This document shows, piece after piece, positions 782 through 36,384 of a DNA stretch of 38,137 nucleotides. The position numbers and the translations under genes were made by a program. Positions within the stretch are counted from its first letter, which is position 1; every line of letters starts with the position of its first letter. The notes beneath the pieces were generated by a model. It was not told the DNA's origin. It saw only the letters and a program-made list of their open reading frames with translations, and ran no database searches. Where the stretch lies: positions 1 to 38,137 of the IMG/VR virus record IMGVR_UViG_3300037424_000885; one strand, 5' to 3'. The stretch comes from a virus (lineage: Duplodnaviria; Caudoviricetes).

Positions 782-1024
782 ATGTGCTATACTAACCGGT
801 GCAAATGGGAATATCGCCACGGCCAGTTTAGGGGGGAATGCCGTCTGCCGTACAATCATTTGTGTCCTGAAGAGGAAAAGGAAGAGGAAAAGGATAAGAA
901 CAGTCCAGCAGAAATTTTATGTTGCAAGTGTGGTCGTTTTTTAAGTAAGCCAGGGAAACAAAAAAAATTATTTAAAAACGGTCTTTGCTATAATTGTGAA
1001 TTGGCAAACAGGAGACGTGAATAG
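782..1024 (+). CDS. small Cys-rich (zinc-finger-like) hypothetical protein
   Basis: Strong SD (AGGAGG) upstream. CxxxC, CCKC and CYNC motifs. Confidence 0.7.
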   Translation: MCYTNRCKWEYRHGQFRGECRLPYNHLCPEEEKEEEKDKNSPAEILCCKCGRFLSKPGKQKKLFKNGLCYNCELANRRRE

Positions 1025-1034
1025 AAAAAAGTTT

Positions 1035-1063
1035 TTGACATTGTCACCATTAAATTGTAAAAT
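1035..1063 (+). promoter_or_regulatory. sigma-70 promoter with overlapping palindrome
   Basis: TTGACA(1035-1040)-17 bp-TAAAAT(1058-1063). Palindrome TGACATTGTCA (1036-1046) overlaps the -35 box. Confidence 0.75.
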
Positions 1064-1117
1064 ATAGATACTTTGAGTTCGCAAATATCTTTTGAAAACC
1101 GAAACCAGGAGAAGGAG

Positions 1118-1384
1118 ATGATCTGTGCGACTAAAGCTAGGGAAATATCACGGATTAGGCCACTAGAACTAATACTGATGGACATCAATATATCCGTACA
1201 AGAGAGAGCAGCAACAGGAGGGTATTACATCATATACGATTATGCGTTGTCGCGCTATATGACAACGCAGGAACAACGAGATGAGGTAGCGTCGAGGATG
1301 AGAAACCTTGGGTACACAATAAGTTACCTTGATAACGGTGCTCAAGAAATTAACTGGGAAAATGCCAAGGAGCCATGTTTCTAA
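1118..1384 (+). CDS. hypothetical phage protein
   Basis: In-frame ATG at 1118 follows AGGAGAAGGAG. The ORF-track start at 1073 is a TTG without an SD. Confidence 0.7.
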   Translation: MICATKAREISRIRPLELILMDINISVQERAATGGYYIIYDYALSRYMTTQEQRDEVASRMRNLGYTISYLDNGAQEINWENAKEPCF

Positions 1385-1578
1385 TGAAAACCTACCAATA
1401 TAAATCTCCGTGGGAAATCACGTTTTCCTGCGCTGAAAGGCTGTATAACTATGTCAAATATCCAGCTGAGAAATCACACTGGGTTGAGGTTGTCTTGAAG
1501 CAATCTGCCATGATACAAAGCCAGCTTGCCCTTGAACTTATGCGAAAACAGCGGAAGTTGAAGGGGAGCAGGACATGA
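1384..1578 (+). CDS. hypothetical phage protein
   Basis: TAATG stop/start coupling with the upstream gene. Confidence 0.6.
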   Translation: MKTYQYKSPWEITFSCAERLYNYVKYPAEKSHWVEVVLKQSAMIQSQLALELMRKQRKLKGSRT

Positions 1579-1694
1579 ATAAGGCTTTGTTCGTTTCCGC
1601 CCTATTCGGGATACTAGTAGTAGCATTTATCTATACGTTGGGCTCGCTTATCCTGTCTAGCGATATTCGTGGTATCTATTCATTTTTTTACTAG
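1575..1694 (+). CDS. 39-aa single-transmembrane peptide (below ORF-track cutoff)
   Basis: ATGA overlap with the upstream stop, GGGGAG SD. Translates MNKALFVSALFGILVVAFIYTLGSLILSSDIRGIYSFFY. Confidence 0.55.
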   Translation: MNKALFVSALFGILVVAFIYTLGSLILSSDIRGIYSFFY

Positions 1695-1713
1695 CTGTAT
1701 ACAGGAGGACTTC

Positions 1714-2127
1714 ATGGCCAGTAAGAAATACAATATTTTCGATGAAACAAGAGAAAGAGAATTTGAAAAGTTGCGCGAAGAAATTGACCCTGCGCAGATA
1801 GTAATGGCGAAGGTCGATCAGGATCATTCAAAGTGCTCCCTAGATCACAGGGGAGATCCGAGACGATATCCAGATCTCACAGCCGTAAATACACTAATGT
1901 TGCCACACAATGGGAATTACTTTGCCTTGCAAGTTTGCCATGTTTGTGAATGGTCGCTCAACCAAAAAGATTGGGATTGGTACCTGTTTGTATGTTTCGG
2001 TTGCAGCACTACAAGGTGGATGCCAGTTAGTGAGGTTTCTACACATTACAAAGAACAAATTATAGGTATGACTGAGTGCCCAATTTGTAGCTTTTTGTCG
2101 CTATGTGATCCGGGAATTATCCATTGA
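1714..2127 (+). CDS. Cys-rich putative zinc-binding protein
   Basis: AGGAGG SD before ATG 1714. Three CxxC pairs (CHVC, CFGC, CPIC). Confidence 0.7.
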   Translation: MASKKYNIFDETREREFEKLREEIDPAQIVMAKVDQDHSKCSLDHRGDPRRYPDLTAVNTLMLPHNGNYFALQVCHVCEWSLNQKDWDWYLFVCFGCSTTRWMPVSEVSTHYKEQIIGMTECPICSFLSLCDPGIIH

Positions 2128-2229
2128 AACGACCTTTTACAAAAATAATGTTCATACCTGTACGGGATCATTACATAGCGTGGAATGGTAGTATTATGAA
2201 CGCCTAACACGTCAATTTTAAAGAAGGTC

Positions 2230-2850
2230 GTGCATAAAATGAAAAAAATAAGAACTATCGTAGACGCTTATAACCATCTCGTTAATGAGTGTTATTATGG
2301 GGATTCCATGTTTTACCAGTACCCACAGAGGGGGTCGTTCGCCAATGAATCTACATATAGAATACAGCTACCACCGTTGATACTCTGTATACTGGAGCCA
2401 ACGAACTTCCTCTATTTACCAAAAACCGTTACCAGGGGGACTATAGAAAAATATTATGAGAACTATCTACTCGGGATGGAAGAGCAGGAAAACGAGGCAT
2501 ATACTTACGGGTCAAGAATAGCCAGTCAACTCCCAGCTATCCTTGAAATGTTGGAAGAAACGCCAACGACGCATCAAATGGCGATCTCAATTTCGACAGT
2601 AAAAGATATTTGTTTAAAAAAACCACCATGCCTACGCGAGTTAACCCTCCAGGTAAGACATGGAGAACTTCACCTAACAAGCTTTTGGAGATCTAATGAC
2701 ATTAAAGAAGCTTTCCTGATAAATCAAGGAGGCCTTGGCTTATTTTTAGAGGACTTAGCAAACTATGCTAAGCTTAAACGAGGCTATCACTACTATGTAT
2801 CAAGTGGTAGTCACATAGATGTGAGGGAAAACGAATGTCTAAAAAAATAG
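2230..2850 (+). CDS. thymidylate synthase (ThyA)-fold protein, short divergent type
   Basis: YTYGSRI, catalytic PPCL, RSND, downstream Asn (AFLIN) and SSH motifs in ThyA order. Confidence 0.85.
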   Translation: MHKMKKIRTIVDAYNHLVNECYYGDSMFYQYPQRGSFANESTYRIQLPPLILCILEPTNFLYLPKTVTRGTIEKYYENYLLGMEEQENEAYTYGSRIASQLPAILEMLEETPTTHQMAISISTVKDICLKKPPCLRELTLQVRHGELHLTSFWRSNDIKEAFLINQGGLGLFLEDLANYAKLKRGYHYYVSSGSHIDVRENECLKK

Positions 2851-3134
2851 TAAATAAGAAAACAGTAAACAAGACCGCAGTAAAGACGATAGCAGTTAAA
2901 TGTATAACATGCAGAAAAAATAAAAAATGCCATTTGAAACCTGCGTTCATGAAAAAATGTTTCCGGTGGGGAGTGTCAGCTATAATTGTGAGGTGTGATA
3001 GTTATGACAAAGCATACAGTGACAGCAACGAAGCGAACCAGCAAGCCGGTAGAACTCGAGAGTTCATTAACGGTCATAAAGGATGCGGCACATCAAAGAT
3101 TCCAAATAACTTGTACAAATCATCTGACGAATAA
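2835..3134 (+). CDS. basic Cys-rich hypothetical protein
   Basis: GAGGG SD. CITC...C...C...C pattern. Its 3' part overlaps the next ORF. Confidence 0.5.
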   Translation: MSKKIVNKKTVNKTAVKTIAVKCITCRKNKKCHLKPAFMKKCFRWGVSAIIVRCDSYDKAYSDSNEANQQAGRTREFINGHKGCGTSKIPNNLYKSSDE

Positions 3135-3228
3135 AATTACTACTGGGCTATATTCTCTGGAAGATTTTCTAGAAAAGTACCCATGGTTCAGTCAGGAAAT
3201 AGAAGAAAGATTAAGAGAAGAGGGATAA
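3004..3228 (+). CDS. hypothetical phage protein
   Basis: GAGGTG SD before in-frame ATG 3004. The stop abuts the next start at 3231. Confidence 0.55.
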   Translation: MTKHTVTATKRTSKPVELESSLTVIKDAAHQRFQITCTNHLTNKITTGLYSLEDFLEKYPWFSQEIEERLREEG

Positions 3229-3230
3229 CT

Positions 3231-3452
3231 ATGGTGGGTAACGACAGTTCACGACCAAGATTAACAGTTGATATAACTCAAGAACAAAGCGATAGAATTA
3301 AAAGCCTCATTCCTTGGGGGATGCGCCCCCAGTTAATTGGATGTTTTTTAGAGTTATTGATGACTTACGCTGAGTTTCGCGGCGTCGGTAAGACCGTCGA
3401 AGACTTGACTAAGGACAGGCTCATAATAACTTTTAAGCCATGGATAAAATAA
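3231..3452 (+). CDS. putative ribbon-helix-helix-like DNA-binding protein
   Basis: GAGGG SD, ATG 3231. RPRLTVDITQEQSDRIK beta-alpha pattern. Confidence 0.55.
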   Translation: MVGNDSSRPRLTVDITQEQSDRIKSLIPWGMRPQLIGCFLELLMTYAEFRGVGKTVEDLTKDRLIITFKPWIK

Positions 3453-3622
3453 AATTGTAGGAGTCCTGCCGAATAGAGGACATTTTGCTTAGCCTGTAAG
3501 AGAATGAAGCTATACAATTGCGCTTGCTGCTCCACGCTTCCTTTACTGTAAAGGAAGCTAGGGGCATTATTCACTTAATTAATAACGTAGTAAAAAACAC
3601 ACTCTAGGTACTAGGGGCAAGA

Positions 3623-4852
3623 ATGTCAGACTCTAAAAGAAAGACGTTAGATTGGATAGATGGCTTCATGCAGTACAATGAGAATACCGAACCTCCAAGG
3701 AGCTATTTACGCTGGGTGGCTATTAGTGTTGTCGCCTCAGCGCTCCAAAGAAAGTGCAGGCTTGAAATGGGAGATTTAACTTTCTATCCGAATATGTACA
3801 TAGTTCTTGTTGGGCCTCCAGGAAAGGCACGGAAGGGAACTGCGATGCGACCAGGCAGGGAGTTTCTTGAAGATCTTGGTGTCCCTGTAAGCGCTGAAGC
3901 TACTACCAGGGAAGCGCTTATCAGGACGCTTGCCGATTCTGTCTCTTCTGTAGTCGACACAAAGACTGGTGAAACGGAATATCACTCTAGCTTAACCGTG
4001 TACAGCGCAGAACTTGTTACGTTTCTGGGCAACCAAAATTATCTATTAATGAGTGATTTAACAGACTGGTTCGACTGCGCTCCAAGATGGACATACAGAA
4101 CGAAAACTGCTGGGGAAGATGATATCTTTGGTGTGTGGTTGAATCTGATAGGCGCCACAACACCTGACCTGATCAGGGCAGCGCTTCCACTGGACGCTAT
4201 CGGCGGCGGGTTTGCTAGTCGGGTAGTGTTTATTTATGAGTCAAACAAATACAAAGCCATTCCATGCCCATTCAAAACATCGGAGGAGCTGGAACTTCGA
4301 GTAAAACTACTCGAGGATTTGCATAAAATCCATGCACTGCAAGGTAGGTTCAAGGTGACGGCTGACTTTTTAGACAAGTACGTAGATTGGTATTATAGCG
4401 CAGACGTTAACCCACCATTTACTGACAGTCGTTTCTCGGGATATGTTGAGCGTAGGGCGACGCATCTTCTAAAATTATGCATGATTTGCTCAGCAAGCCG
4501 GTCTGATAGTATGATTATATCAGCACAAGACTTTAGCCGTGCTAAGTTGTTCCTCACTGACGCAGAAAAGAATATGCTTAGAACTTTTAGCGGTGTGGGA
4601 AAAAGCGCTCACGCAGCCACGATGGAAGCGGTTATGGGAGAAATCGCTACACGTAAAGAAACCACGATGGGAGAGTTGTTAGGTATCTTCTATCAAGACG
4701 TCGACCAATACATGTTGGAGAATATGATTCGCACGCTAGACACAATGAATTTTATTGATTATCACATAACGAAATCTGCCACTACCAATAAAATTATTTA
4801 TCGTGGAGAGACACGAAAAGGGAGTGTAATCATGGAGGCATCCGATATATGA
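3623..4852 (+). CDS. DUF3987/YfjI-like P-loop ATPase (putative replication helicase-related protein)
   Basis: YPNMYIVLVGPPGKARKGT Walker A, LNLIGATTP and GGFASRVVFIY motifs. Probable C-terminal winged-helix region. Confidence 0.8.
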   Translation: MSDSKRKTLDWIDGFMQYNENTEPPRSYLRWVAISVVASALQRKCRLEMGDLTFYPNMYIVLVGPPGKARKGTAMRPGREFLEDLGVPVSAEATTREALIRTLADSVSSVVDTKTGETEYHSSLTVYSAELVTFLGNQNYLLMSDLTDWFDCAPRWTYRTKTAGEDDIFGVWLNLIGATTPDLIRAALPLDAIGGGFASRVVFIYESNKYKAIPCPFKTSEELELRVKLLEDLHKIHALQGRFKVTADFLDKYVDWYYSADVNPPFTDSRFSGYVERRATHLLKLCMICSASRSDSMIISAQDFSRAKLFLTDAEKNMLRTFSGVGKSAHAATMEAVMGEIATRKETTMGELLGIFYQDVDQYMLENMIRTLDTMNFIDYHITKSATTNKIIYRGETRKGSVIMEASDI

Positions 4853-4928
4853 GATACTTTTGCTTTGTGGTGTGGGAGGGGAGGTTAGTGATGGCCGTTC
4901 CTATCCCGATATGTACCGAGGAAACGAC

Positions 4929-5138
4929 ATGAATATGAAGGAACCACGGAACGCCTCAGGGTTACACGAACTCAAGCAACTTCTTATGCCTCTATTGCTT
5001 GTTTTTGCCGCTTACGCTGTTGGTGTGATGACAGGATATGAGCATGGACGTAAGGACGGCATTTCTTTTGAAATGACGAGAAATGCAGAATCGTTTCCGC
5101 AAACGGTGAAAGCAATAAAAGAGATGGTATGCCCTTGA
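4929..5138 (+). CDS. cassette ORF 1, small membrane protein
   Basis: GAGGA SD, ATG 4929. Hydrophobic LLMPLLLVFAAYAVGVMTGY followed by GYEHGRKDG. Confidence 0.65.
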   Translation: MNMKEPRNASGLHELKQLLMPLLLVFAAYAVGVMTGYEHGRKDGISFEMTRNAESFPQTVKAIKEMVCP

Positions 5139-5139
5139 G

Positions 5140-5225
5140 GCATTATGGCCAGCCTAACCGGGCGGCCACTTAATTAATTTTTTGCCGGATGCGTTATCCC
5201 GCTCCGGTTGAGGTGTTTGTTATGC
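5140..5225 (-). other. attC-like site A (86 bp)
   Basis: Minus strand: R'' GCATAAC, 5-nt spacer, L'' CCTCAACC ... L', 6-nt spacer, degenerate R' ATAATGC. The plus strand folds 13 bp (5153-5165 with 5199-5213) with extrahelical G5210 and T5203. Confidence 0.8.
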
Positions 5226-5524
5226 AAAATAATAGTTGCTGTTGTGGCAAATATAAAGACTGTGACTTGCCGTTTATCTCAAACGATATCGAACATGAAC
5301 AGTTAGGACTTGACGGGGCATTTTGTGGGCCAGTCATTAAACACCAACTCAGCAGGGCAGAATTAAAGCTGAACAAAATCTCCACACTGGTAAACGCTGC
5401 CTTGCTGACGACCACCAAGAAAATGAACCAAGGCCCAGAGGTTTTTATTTCTGGGTCAAGATTTATAGATGCTAAAAGTTTTGAGGATGTTCTTGTGCAT
5501 ATTGCTGAATTGCTTGTGGCATAA
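5222..5524 (+). CDS. cassette ORF 2, hypothetical protein
   Basis: ATG inside GTTATGC (alternative start 5189 within the hairpin loop). TAA inside GCATAAC. Confidence 0.65.
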   Translation: MQNNSCCCGKYKDCDLPFISNDIEHEQLGLDGAFCGPVIKHQLSRAELKLNKISTLVNAALLTTTKKMNQGPEVFISGSRFIDAKSFEDVLVHIAELLVA

Positions 5525-5648
5525 CGATTTAGTTAAATAGATTGCATATTAAAGCCAAGGAGATACAACCATGAATGAAGATTCTAAAATTGAAGAAAGT
5601 CCAGAAACCGCCAATATCAGCAATTCCACGCTGAACGGCTTGTTATGC
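5519..5648 (-). other. attC-like site B (130 bp, partly degenerate stem)
   Basis: Minus strand: GCATAAC-AAGCC-GTTCAGCG ... ATTTAAC-TAAATC-GTTATGC. Inner ATTGC/GCAAT and ATATT/AATAT pairings. Confidence 0.65.
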
Positions 5649-5807
5649 GATATTGAGGGCGAACCGCTAGAACCTTATTTCGATGGAGGCTACTGGAGAT
5701 TACCATATTTGATGAATGGTGCTGGGGGCTATGGTGGTAGCGTTGGCGAGATGAAACACAAAACCAAAGACGGCGTAATAGCAATGTATATTGATTATCA
5801 CACATAA
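5571..5807 (+). CDS. cassette ORF 3, hypothetical protein
   Basis: AAGGAG SD and ATG lie inside site B. TAA inside ACATAAC. Confidence 0.7.
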   Translation: MNEDSKIEESPETANISNSTLNGLLCDIEGEPLEPYFDGGYWRLPYLMNGAGGYGGSVGEMKHKTKDGVIAMYIDYHT

Positions 5808-5889
5808 CAACCCGCATAACCAGCTGGCCCCGGGAACTGGCGTATGCCGCAACGCTTCTTCCCGTCTGAGTTAATGCGGCTGGTTAGCT
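5802..5889 (-). other. attC-like site C (88 bp)
   Basis: ACATAAC...GTTAGCT. CCGCATAACCAG (5812-5823) pairs with CTGAGTTAATGCGG (5866-5879), leaving two extrahelical bases on the right arm. Inner CGGGAA/TTCCCG stem. Confidence 0.8.
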
Positions 5890-5892
5890 GAT

Positions 5893-6075
5893 ATGAAATT
5901 TATTGAATGGTTTTTAAAAAGGTCTCTTGGTTATGTTTGCTATTGGCCTGTATTGGTTCTCCCTTTGTGGTTATCATGTAACCGTTTTTATTCATGGCCG
6001 CTGTCATGGGCTGGGTTTTATGCCAATGATGATGGATATCAAAATTGGCTAAAAAGGCAGCGCAGAAAACGATAA
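5893..6075 (+). CDS. cassette ORF 4, small aromatic/hydrophobic protein
   Basis: ATG 3 bp after GTTAGCT. Trp-rich, possibly membrane-associated. Confidence 0.6.
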   Translation: MKFIEWFLKRSLGYVCYWPVLVLPLWLSCNRFYSWPLSWAGFYANDDGYQNWLKRQRRKR

Positions 6076-6128
6076 AGCTCAGTTGCGCCGCAACTGAAAT
6101 GTGGGGCGCATGGCAGATGCTTTTTGCT

Positions 6129-6250
6129 GTGTAACGATGAGCGCACTTGACCAAGGAAAAAAGGATTATGAAACAAGCAACTGAAACACGGCAGGAACTA
6201 ACAACCGGCAAGCGCAGCCCCCCGGGGGCAAGTGTTGCGACTTGTTATGT
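6129..6250 (-). other. attC-like site D (122 bp)
   Basis: GTGTAAC-GATGA-GCGCACTTG ... CAAGTGTTGC-GACTT-GTTATGT. One extra base on the right arm. Confidence 0.7.
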
Positions 6251-6434
6251 AATTGTTGAGGGTGAATTTTATTCAGAGGAACACACCCTTTGCGTATGCA
6301 AAACAAAGAAAATAGCACTACAAAAGTGCCGTTTCGATGGGTTTTCGTATAACCGCAAAGATGATCTTTGGAGTGGAGAAAGGTGTGGGCAATCATATTA
6401 TCGAAGAATTGAAAGAGAAGATTTCTATATATAA
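6168..6434 (+). CDS. cassette ORF 5, hypothetical protein
   Basis: AAGGA SD and ATG 6168 lie inside site D. TAA inside ATATAAC. Confidence 0.7.
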   Translation: MKQATETRQELTTGKRSPPGASVATCYVIVEGEFYSEEHTLCVCKTKKIALQKCRFDGFSYNRKDDLWSGERCGQSYYRRIEREDFYI

Positions 6435-6448
6435 CAGTGTGTTACACA
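6429..6448. other. attI-like simple recombination site (copy 2)
   Basis: ATATAAC-AGTGT-GTTACAC-A. No long hairpin partner. It terminates the array. Confidence 0.55.
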
Positions 6449-6501
6449 AAAAAAACGGGATACCTGAGTGAAGGGAAAACATGGCGCTAGCTGAACTCAG
6501 T

Positions 6502-34184: not shown

Positions 34185-34222
34185 AAACTCTAGCTTGATA
34201 ACTTTTGCTTGGAGGTTTTCCT

Positions 34223-35083
34223 TTGATAACCCACTTCACTTTTTTTGCTAGTTACTACGACTCAGTAGAACATCTAGGAAAGGATATTAAAATTGAATTT
34301 TTTGACGCATTGCTAAAATATGCATTGCGTGACGAAATACCGGATAAATTGTCACCAACAGTGCAAGCCTTATTTATTATGGCAAAACCGAACGTTGATA
34401 AAAGTAAGGCCAGAAGTAAGGCTGGAGGTAAGGGTGGAAAGTCTAAAACAAGGCAAAAAACAAACGAATATCAAGAAGATATGGGACAAGAAGAAATAAC
34501 AGACGAAATATACTTGGATGAAGAAGAAAAAACAATTAAGCAAAACGAAATTTGCTTAAACGAAAAAGAAAGCAAAAGTAAGCAAAACAAAATTTGCTTA
34601 AACGAAAAAGAAAGCAAACTTAAGCAGGATTCATTTTGCTTAAACCAAAGTGTAAGCGATAAGGAGAAGGATAAGGAGAAGGATAAGGATAAGGAGAAGG
34701 AAAAAAAACAAAAACCCTCTATCACTTACAGTGATAATTTTGAGAGGTTTTGGAAAGAATACCCGAGAAAACAAGGAAAGGTAAAGGCATACCTTTCCTG
34801 GAAAAGACAGGGTTGCGATTCTATCATGGAAAAAATCATGACCTCCTTGGAATCGTTTAAACGTAGCGATGCCTGGAAAAAGGACAACGGGCAATACATC
34901 CCCCACGGCGTTACGTGGGTTAACGGAGCGAGATGGGAAGATGAAGTTGAGGCAAAGGAGGAAAAGTACTGCGGAACCTGCCGCGACTTTTGTAAACCAG
35001 GATCTCCAGACCATTGCCACAGAAACGGGGGGCAGAAAGCATGCAAGATGTACAATTTAGGCGAATTCCGCCTCACGACTTAG
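34223..35083 (+). CDS. phage replication initiator (DUF6291-like N-terminus, lambda O-analogous)
   Basis: GGAGG SD then TTG 34223. FTFFASYY...ALLKYA N-terminus, DKEK linker, FERFWKEYPRK...YIPH..TWVNGARWEDE C-terminus. Followed by DnaB. Confidence 0.85.
   Translation: MITHFTFFASYYDSVEHLGKDIKIEFFDALLKYALRDEIPDKLSPTVQALFIMAKPNVDKSKARSKAGGKGGKSKTRQKTNEYQEDMGQEEITDEIYLDEEEKTIKQNEICLNEKESKSKQNKICLNEKESKLKQDSFCLNQSVSDKEKDKEKDKDKEKEKKQKPSITYSDNFERFWKEYPRKQGKVKAYLSWKRQGCDSIMEKIMTSLESFKRSDAWKKDNGQYIPHGVTWVNGARWEDEVEAKEEKYCGTCRDFCKPGSPDHCHRNGGQKACKMYNLGEFRLTT
34537..34645 (+). repeat. 42-bp tandem repeats (iterons) inside the initiator gene
   Basis: Units start at 34537, 34579 and 34621 (partial). Each contains TAAGCA...TGCTTA dyad symmetry. 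Confidence 0.85.
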
Positions 35084-36384
35084 AGGCCGAGAGGGCCATT
35101 TTAGGAACGTGTCTCTACGGGACAGAGCATATTTACACTGTGCTTGATAGTATTACTCCTGACAGTTTTTACAATAATATCAACAGGATTATCTTTGAAA
35201 GTATAGCGACCCTTGCGACAAGGGGCGAAAATGTAGATATCGTCACTGTTGCTAACAAACTGTCAGAAAAAGGGGCATTAGATAAAATCGGAGGGATACC
35301 GTATTTATCTTCTTTAACCTCTGATATAATGCCAGGATTTGTGTCGGATTATTGTGGAATAGTTCGCGCTAAAGCTATGTTGCGGCACATAATCGCGTCA
35401 AGCAACAATATTTTACTAAAAGCCTATAAAGGGTGTGCTGAAAATGATTTGGTGTCTGAAATCAGCAAGTTAGCGATGTCATTTGGTACACGCGAAAAAG
35501 AAAAGTCTGCGTCGACAAAGGATTTGATTCCAGCAGCTATAAAAAAAATTAAAGAATATCAGGATTCTGAGAGGGTGTTCGGCATCCCTTCAGGACTGGA
35601 AGATTTAGATGCGCACACTGGCGGGTTTAAAGCCAGCAACTACATTGTAATTGCAGGTAGGCCTGGAATGGGAAAAACATCCCTTGCTTTGAATATCATT
35701 CTTGCTGCTGGAGCAGGCAACAAGAGATGTTTGTTTTTTTCGCTTGAGATGAAAAAAGAAAGCCTTGCTGAACGAATGCTATCAAGTGATTCTGGTGTGT
35801 CAAGTAGGGCCATGGAGAGGGGTTTTCTAAATAAAAACGATTGGATAAAGATAACCGCTGCTGCAAAAAAAATAAGAGAATACGATATTACAGTCGATGA
35901 TTCCACCGCGCTTTCTGTAGCTGACATAACAAACAGGGCAAAAAGACACGCTATAACGAAACCTGTTGATTTAGTGGTTGTTGATTATATCCAGCTTATC
36001 AGATCAACCGGCGGGCAAAATAGACACCTAGAAATCGAAAAAATATCTGCTGGATTACTAGCTCTATGTAAAGATATTGATGCCGCTGTTATAATATTGT
36101 CGCAACTTAACAGGAAGTGTGAAGACAGAACTAATAAGCGGCCTTTGCCCTCAGACTTAAAAGAGTCTGGGTCGCTTGAAGAAAACGCACATATCGTGAT
36201 GTTGCTTTATCGCGATGAGGTGTACAACACATCACCAGATAATCCTGAGAAAGGGGTTGCCGAAATAATCATTGCTAAGGGGCGTGATATTGGGCAGAGG
36301 ACAATAAGAACAGCATTCATAGGAGAGATTACCGGTTTTCGAAATCTCACGGATAATGGTTACAGAAATAATAATCAAGAATGA
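35041..36384 (+). CDS. dnaB: replicative DNA helicase
   Basis: IPPHDLEAERAILG, AGRPGMGKT, VDYIQL, LSQLNR and SDLKESGSLE motifs. Start 35041 or 35014. Confidence 0.95.
   Translation: MQDVQFRRIPPHDLEAERAILGTCLYGTEHIYTVLDSITPDSFYNNINRIIFESIATLATRGENVDIVTVANKLSEKGALDKIGGIPYLSSLTSDIMPGFVSDYCGIVRAKAMLRHIIASSNNILLKAYKGCAENDLVSEISKLAMSFGTREKEKSASTKDLIPAAIKKIKEYQDSERVFGIPSGLEDLDAHTGGFKASNYIVIAGRPGMGKTSLALNIILAAGAGNKRCLFFSLEMKKESLAERMLSSDSGVSSRAMERGFLNKNDWIKITAAAKKIREYDITVDDSTALSVADITNRAKRHAITKPVDLVVVDYIQLIRSTGGQNRHLEIEKISAGLLALCKDIDAAVIILSQLNRKCEDRTNKRPLPSDLKESGSLEENAHIVMLLYRDEVYNTSPDNPEKGVAEIIIAKGRDIGQRTIRTAFIGEITGFRNLTDNGYRNNNQE

Follow-up and report, generated by a model that had tools for sequence, protein, structure and literature searches.

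It has long been asked how phages acquire and rearrange their numerous small early genes; units, a crossover base and a candidate enzyme can now be named for this question. The locus described here lies in the tailed-phage record IMGVR_UViG_3300037424_000885, and the whole stretch that was analyzed (38,137 bases, hereafter the window) is the complete viral record, corresponding to ~79% of the phage genome as estimated by CheckV. At positions 4929 to 6448 five short open reading frames on the plus strand alternate with hairpins resembling the attC sites of integrons, which read on the minus strand. To our knowledge integrons have been held to require genes on the top strand of attC. The questions are therefore whether these hairpins are attC sites, which enzyme would act on them, what the moving unit is, and whether the reversed layout belongs to this phage or to phages at large.

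Methods

Sites were scored with a covariance model (R1) whose training set consisted solely of 61 bacterial attC sites. Polarity was surveyed with one attC pattern run on viral contigs (35 of 64 parts covered) and on bacterial genomes (9 of 64 parts), and genes were assigned to strands by a simple caller, which had been checked against the window and three annotated phages. At least 110 viral sites were listed, 37 of which were removed (21 inside a called gene and 16 with a weak L box); the bacterial sites listed numbered at least 120, with 38 removed. Sites are called co-oriented when the genes lie on the attC top strand and inverted when they lie on the bottom strand. Published work is cited as far as the accessible text of each source extends.

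Results and discussion

Anatomy of the array

Four hairpins had been marked between the reading frames in the initial annotation, which expected a covariance model to find them on the minus strand. Model R1 placed them at the same coordinates (Table 1): over the 38,137 bases sites A to D ranked first to fourth among 13 matches at E<=10, all on minus, and the genes lie on plus. All four contain, according to this model of bacterial training, the imperfect palindrome R''-spacer-L''...L'-spacer-R', with spacers of 5-6 bases and an extra base in L''. The unpaired base of L'', in plus-strand letters, is G at 5210, G at 5633, A at 5874 and T at 6235 in sites A, B, C and D, respectively; both extrahelical bases described earlier for site A on plus, G5210 and T5203, are present. 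The conserved AAC of the bottom-strand R' is kept in B, C and D and is gone from A (GCATTAT). Sites B and D overlap genes, since the long variable part of B contains the ribosome site and start of ORF3 and that of D the start of ORF5.

Table 1 Coordinates of the array features and of the intron remnant at the left edge (R1 E-values are rough)
Feature	Position	Strand	R1 score	pfold	Remarks
Group IIC-type intron 3' remnant	4867..4910	plus			44 bases: distal strand of domain V and domain VI
ORF1	4929..5138	plus			69 aa; no PHROG/Pfam match
attC site A	5140-5225	minus	31.6 bits, E 1.3e-5	1.5e-4	
ORF2	5222..5524	plus			100 aa; start codon in site A R'', stop codon in site B R'
attC site B	5519-5648	minus	27.2 bits, E 1.7e-4	1.9e-5	
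ORF3	5571..5807	plus			78 aa; first ~25 residues encoded by site B
attC site C	5802-5889	minus	24.1 bits, E 1.1e-3	0.11	L box 7/7
ORF4	5893..6075	plus			60 aa; doubtful, rejected by gene caller
attC site D	6129-6250	minus	14.2 bits, E 0.36	8.9e-5	L box 6/7
ORF5	6168..6434	plus			88 aa; first ~25 residues encoded by site D; stop codon in terminal core
Terminal site E	6429..6447	minus			two inverted 7-base boxes, 5 bases apart

The expectation that the hairpins would exceed shuffled DNA held in part. A strict arm scanner gave three matches in 4929-6448 against a mean of 0.076 over 1000 shuffles, none of which contained three; one of these three, at 5976-6088 (plus, within ORF4), is probably due to chance. 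By plain folding energy site A stood out (z -2.4/-2.6), C reached -1.2/-1.4, and B and D stayed at about 0, so that this test was uninformative for the latter two and was set aside for them. The probability of the recombinogenic fold (pfold) was 0.11 for C and between 1e-4 and 1e-5 for A, B and D; the medians were 0.11 for 60 viral and 0.19 for 60 bacterial sites. Sites A, B and D are at or below the 10th percentile of the viral set, with little difference between their top and bottom strands. Excision has been reported to be reduced or absent at sites with pfold near 1e-5, and weak Vibrio sites fall in such a range (PMC5371416). The array is real but partly decayed, as judged from the loss of AAC in A and from the low pfold of A, B and D, and site C is the best folder. 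Rfam gave nothing relevant on the window, and five of the six loci found with the exact left-arm pattern of site B were chance matches within genes.

The locus shares with CALINs (clusters of attC sites lacking a nearby integrase) its four sites within 1.1 kb and, within the 38,137 bases of a contig ~79% complete, the absence of intI, without which it is not a complete integron. No tyrosine recombinase, IntI or resolvase was matched across these bases (PF00589, TIGR02249, PF00239), in agreement with the initial annotation. The canonical arrangement, in which genes lie on the attC top strand and the site is 3' of its gene, is not what is found, the sites being on minus and the genes on plus.

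Genes and cassette cores

No protein family was found for the window ORFs. Within ORF1 lies what remains of an attC right arm (4970-4989, with the core CTTATGC at 4983-4989), decayed and a weak match that ranks 55th among 38,097 places; the outer letters of its core match those of site A R' at 4/4. ORF2 is the best-kept cassette, with flanking cores complementary at 7/7; it has four homologues (71-85% identity) and its N-terminal CCC motif is common to 119 clusters, and no ORF2 locus was confirmed in viral and metagenome contigs. One ORF2 homologue (P0010) carries a 25-residue leader resembling that of ORF3, which places an ORF2-type gene body behind a long attC body. ORF3 had no homologue except itself, Atlas matches all scoring <0.9, and the Atlas searches with ORF2 and ORF3 yielded no usable match. 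The two homologues of ORF5 (63 and 68%) both retain an attC-type leader. A contig of 39,803 bases carries both ORF3 and ORF5. Downstream of ORF4 there is a weak half-site (6064-6083, rank 43 of 711) followed by a short hairpin; a fifth whole site at ~6064-6111 was rejected.

Complementary cores had been claimed on either side of each gene, as in canonical arrays, and such pairs are found around all five. Over seven letters there are 7, 6 and 6 matches for cassettes 2, 3 and 5 and 5/7 each for cassettes 1 and 4, the putative right-end core of cassette 4 at 6064 belonging to the weak half-site. The outer four letters agree at 4, 4, 3, 2 and 3 positions in cassettes 1 to 5.

Edges of the array

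Terminal site E is either attI-like by position or a collapsed attC. It pairs with R'' of site D (3/4 outer letters) and occupies the place held by attI in phages bearing intI. Identity with a standard attI is not supported: its register differs from the commonest phage attI and its exact form occurs at 0 of 26 other array ends. Arrays contain more mini-sites resembling E than expected (21 against 7.5), with no enrichment within the window (2 against 2.6). A second two-box mini-site lies at 121-139, where the first ORF has its stop codon, midway through the early region. In addition, site D R' (6129-6135) exactly complements the far box of site E (6441-6447), though these do not flank one cassette in the usual order.

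The left edge is marked by the intron remnant, at which unrelated contigs lie. The same pair of motifs forms the end of group II introns at 14 viral loci and is covered by Rfam RF00029 in 3 of the 13 scanned; the window retains domain VI and the last bases of domain V, and Rfam matches the fuller copies, not the window. A search of the remnant against plasmids gave no match. In the window, and likewise in each of the five loose 3' ends listed out of 13, the letters following the intron end resemble the last part of an R'' core (A, then TG or GC), which hints at an attC-homing lineage.

Genome setting

Head, portal and terminase genes are carried on the minus strand, recombination and replication genes on the plus strand with the array at their end, and the array and the late genes converge head to head near 6500. 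Besides a DUF3987 primase-like gene the phage encodes a lambda-like initiator with DnaB helicase (3623-4852 and 34205-36384), and likewise RecE/RecT, SSB, NinB and RusA. Sigma-70 promoters inside the array occur at chance level only. No match to the array was obtained by blastn against 50,697 phage records, and no relatives were found via the neighbouring late gene. Relatives sought by the primase comprised 43 loci at 40-53% identity, with a single match (E 0.84) in 482,715 bases; because these 43 lack an array, it was either gained in the lineage of the window's phage or lost from the primase relatives.

Taken as a whole, the locus is in our judgement probably an attC array with its genes on the other strand from the one used in bacterial integrons. 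It was likely built up when phage-made cassettes were joined by an IntI-type reaction at the end of the early transcript, and it is predicted to need an integron integrase from outside the contig.

The recombinase

The initial annotation proposed a borrowed host recombinase, IntI-like or Xer-like. Fifty viral records with inverted sites contained one IntI above the TIGR02249 cut-off, and none was matched in the 12 near-complete ones (0/12); on these grounds most inverted phage arrays are orphan. In the positive record intI comes last in the shared transcript, behind an attI-like site. An IntI-alignment search confirmed 522 viral stretches, of which the best 80 were kept, a set leaning towards this type of phage and including near-duplicates. 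The model applied to these 80 loci found 148 sites, 140 of them on the strand opposite to intI; at 50 of the 80 the attC sites lie upstream of intI on the opposite strand, with the genes on intI's strand in 47 of the 50. Three viral loci (L355, L378 and L388) resemble the inverted-integrase type. In trees of 96 and 47 rows the phage IntIs interleave with those of bacteria, 26 in number. Since many phages close such arrays with an intI of their own, IntI and not Xer is the likely enzyme, and it need not be that of the host. Xer was dropped on account of the attC anatomy of the sites and of IntI being the neighbouring recombinase in other phages. The placing of new genes at the end of the early transcript agrees with the growth point in other phages, located there where intI-bearing phages carry intI.

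Some individual loci deserve mention. Upstream of intI in L310-L389 the common form of the attI-like sites is AAC, five bases, TT, and L307 and L308 are alike from exactly the AAC of the attI-like site onward. At L124 (4156-4737) a shortened intI, its N-terminal third, closes an inverted array and likely represents a step toward an integrase-less array.

Action of a different enzyme, either host Xer or a non-IntI phage recombinase encoded in that fifth of the genome which the contig lacks, or a fossil array reshaped only by RecT-type recombination between similar sites, is in our view very unlikely. Such readings would account for the lack of IntI in all 12 near-complete records and for the poor folding of three of the four window sites, and RecE/RecT-like genes are at hand in the phage. 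Nevertheless, the sites score as attC down to the extra base of L'' and the 5-6 base spacers, arrays of this kind that do have a neighbouring recombinase have IntI, and a fossil status would be limited to the window copy and leave the origin of the array unchanged.

The unit of movement

If genes move as cassettes, cores should correspond across the gene. Perfect agreement of R'' was found with the core across the gene in 128 of 184 neighbouring viral pairs and with its own R' in 24 (47/68 and 6/68 in the bacterial control). The identity of attC bodies was 0.81 where the 3' gene was common and the 5' neighbour was not (10 pairs), 0.51 where the 5' gene was common (12 pairs) and 0.48 for random pairs. 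Among six pairs with shared 3' genes at least 97% alike the body was identical in four and changed in two, and all four near-identical pairs sharing the 5' gene diverge directly after AAC. Because body identity tracks the 3' gene and divergence starts after AAC, the moving unit is body first and gene second, cut at the AA/C of R', which is the place of the ordinary bottom-strand reaction (PMC5027507). The TAA of this core ends a called gene at 116 of 297 sites.

Breakpoints at the core, anticipated in the initial annotation, were seen at AA/C in other phages and also for a variant of ORF2 that changes its neighbour there. In contigs of run X3 this variant departs from the window at 5527, two bases past the core at 5525, into another attC-like arm. 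An A-type body begins in the same run at 5147, directly behind an intact AAC core, and the body of site A with an intact AAC core and different neighbours was found in runs X1 and X3. A further piece of the ORF2 variant has unlike sequence 5' of R'' and a distant ORF2 homologue has a different leader, so bodies are exchanged at times. The idea of a gene-shuffling platform is borne out by cassette movement in other phages and less so by the window, where the array is partly decayed and the contigs of the three runs (X1-X3), which cannot reveal rare excision, held no joint or skipped cassette. The window DNA may itself derive from run X1, and no RNA run was listed as containing the sequence.

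A further reading, which we consider very unlikely, takes the attC bodies for selfish or passive inserts, gene-less cassettes that a host IntI left between early genes of the ordinary sort. These genes would not be cassettes themselves, and the orientation would be determined by replication or by the tolerance of the transcript. The swapping of some bodies while the gene stays and the primase relatives without an array would fit such inserts, and IntI is able to insert cassettes outside att sites (bioRxiv 10.1101/2022.09.11.507474). They are opposed by the cores, which match across the gene and not across the body (128 versus 24 of 184), by identical units of body and gene among different neighbours, by paired genomes already seen to differ by one whole body-plus-gene unit, and by the phage intI and conserved attI-like site at the array end.

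Polarity and cargo

Among the matches listed, the 73 viral sites kept comprised 53 inverted, 12 probably inverted, no co-oriented, 2 probably co-oriented and 6 mixed. The 82 bacterial sites kept, again among the matches listed, comprised 48 co-oriented, 6 probably co-oriented, 4 inverted, 5 probably inverted and 19 mixed. For clear sites the ratio of inverted to co-oriented was thus 53:0 in viral versus 4:48 in bacterial sequences (Fisher p 1e-25 among the matches listed, an overstated value since sites in one locus and in related phages are not independent). Several of the inverted bacterial sites sit in prophage-like DNA. A wider scanner classified sites as 237 inverted, 11 co-oriented, 66 unclear and 12 in long genes at 162 viral loci, and as 14 inverted, 100 co-oriented, 47 unclear and 10 in long genes at 80 bacterial loci, where 5 of the 14 inverted sites come from L226. 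The reversed layout is the rule in the surveyed phage sequences.

The locus L226 itself (877-4868) has ~12 inverted sites with phage-type genes in a bacterial genome bin and is probably a prophage. At L047 (960-3990) ~12 inverted attC sites are recognized by eye, one type occurring three times with different genes, and one cargo gene is Lar-like. The phages of Qi and coworkers differ: TJE1 is co-oriented, MW202573 (3 sites) and the PH101 site (L102) are inverted, and H188 and 3/49 gave scattered weak matches only with our scanner.

Pfam matches were obtained for 19 of the 105 proteins examined (of 195 found) in other inverted arrays; they include eight DNA methyltransferases, Lar and phage families and no toxin-antitoxin genes. 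The 61 of 71 bacterial cassette proteins examined gave four toxin or antitoxin matches and one DNA methyltransferase. Such cargo would fit a separate phage cassette pool.

A captured bacterial array that lost its genes and gained new opposite-strand frames, or cassettes inserted backwards by rare top-strand recombination, is highly improbable: co-oriented captured arrays do exist in phages (TJE1 with 3/3 sites, and L334) and top-strand insertion does yield the opposite orientation (PMC5027507), but top-strand cutting would tie the body to the 5' gene, contrary to the data, breakpoints are seen at R', and the cargo is phage-type, with no toxin-antitoxin genes among the 105 proteins examined of 195.

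Proposed mechanism and its meaning

Under the preferred reading of IntI-type recombination of phage-made cassettes, each cassette would begin at the C of one AA/C core and end at the next AA/C, where the stop codon often sits. The attC body, which often includes the ribosome site and start codon, would come first and be followed by R'' and the gene. The strand folded and cut by IntI, the attC bottom strand, would here be the coding strand. The phage early promoter would drive the array genes, new cassettes would enter at the far end, at site E, and IntI would presumably act on the window array in trans. The window array itself would be an orphaned, partly decayed copy, in which good recombination is expected of C and poor recombination of B and D, with A likely failing at its own R'.

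We put forward more tentatively, with somewhat less than even confidence, that tailed phages may run an integron system of their own: a separate, hairpin-first pool of counter-defence and other early genes, shuffled by phage or host IntI, in which polarity would serve as a firewall and integrase-less phages would borrow IntI in trans. Much of the mosaicism of small early-region genes would then be site-specific, not illegitimate. Such a firewall, if true, would keep host cassettes, often anti-phage defence, silent in the phage array and phage cassettes silent in the host integron. A phage branch following the opposite rule would make polarity a switch that may separate two cassette pools sharing one recombinase family. 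Bacterial integrons store anti-phage systems (bioRxiv 10.1101/2024.07.02.601686 and.601719) and phage cassettes carry DNA methyltransferases and Lar, so phage and host may both draw on one machine in their arms race. The window genome is a modest, decayed example, and its value lies in the class.

Comparison with known systems

The initial annotation knew of no formal description of this arrangement. That holds for reversed polarity: no paper on reversed cassettes or on arrays with intI last was found in phages by a search outside which most subscription papers lie. It does not hold for integrase-less phage attC clusters, which have already been published (PMC9892861; Qi, Rajabal, Ghaly, Tetu, Gillings 2023), so that only the reversed polarity seems new. 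The 17 phage CALINs described there are like the window array in having at least two attC sites without intI in a phage and small cargo genes. IntI1 recombined five of six tested phage sites, bottom strand better than top, PH101_attC1 among them on the bottom strand (PMC9892861); in our own analysis PH101_attC1 (locus L102) is inverted to its genes. The accessible text of that paper gives no rule that genes lie opposite to attC: it calls the TJE1 and PH101 arrays typical, describes only the P12002L sites as divergent, and contains no description of phage-type intI arrays.

Bacterial integrons (PMC5027507; CALIN defined in PMC4889954) differ in several respects, as far as they are described in these sources. 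The phage-array genes lie on the attC bottom strand, the phage site precedes and often starts its gene, the phage intI is last in the array transcript, not divergent, and expression in phages would use a promoter at the old end of the array and not Pc beside attI. Group IIC-attC introns, according to the accessible account (PMC3001079), resemble the window in that the bottom strand of attC carries a group IIC 3' end at the array edge; they are antisense to the integron genes, whereas the window remnant is sense and 44 bases long, its lineage and target being putative. The inverted-integrase integrons of Treponema and others (PMC4889954, PMC13323075) share with the phage arrays an unusual relative orientation of parts, but as reported there in them a single strand bears intI and attC, while in the phage arrays intI and attC are opposite and it is the genes that are flipped.
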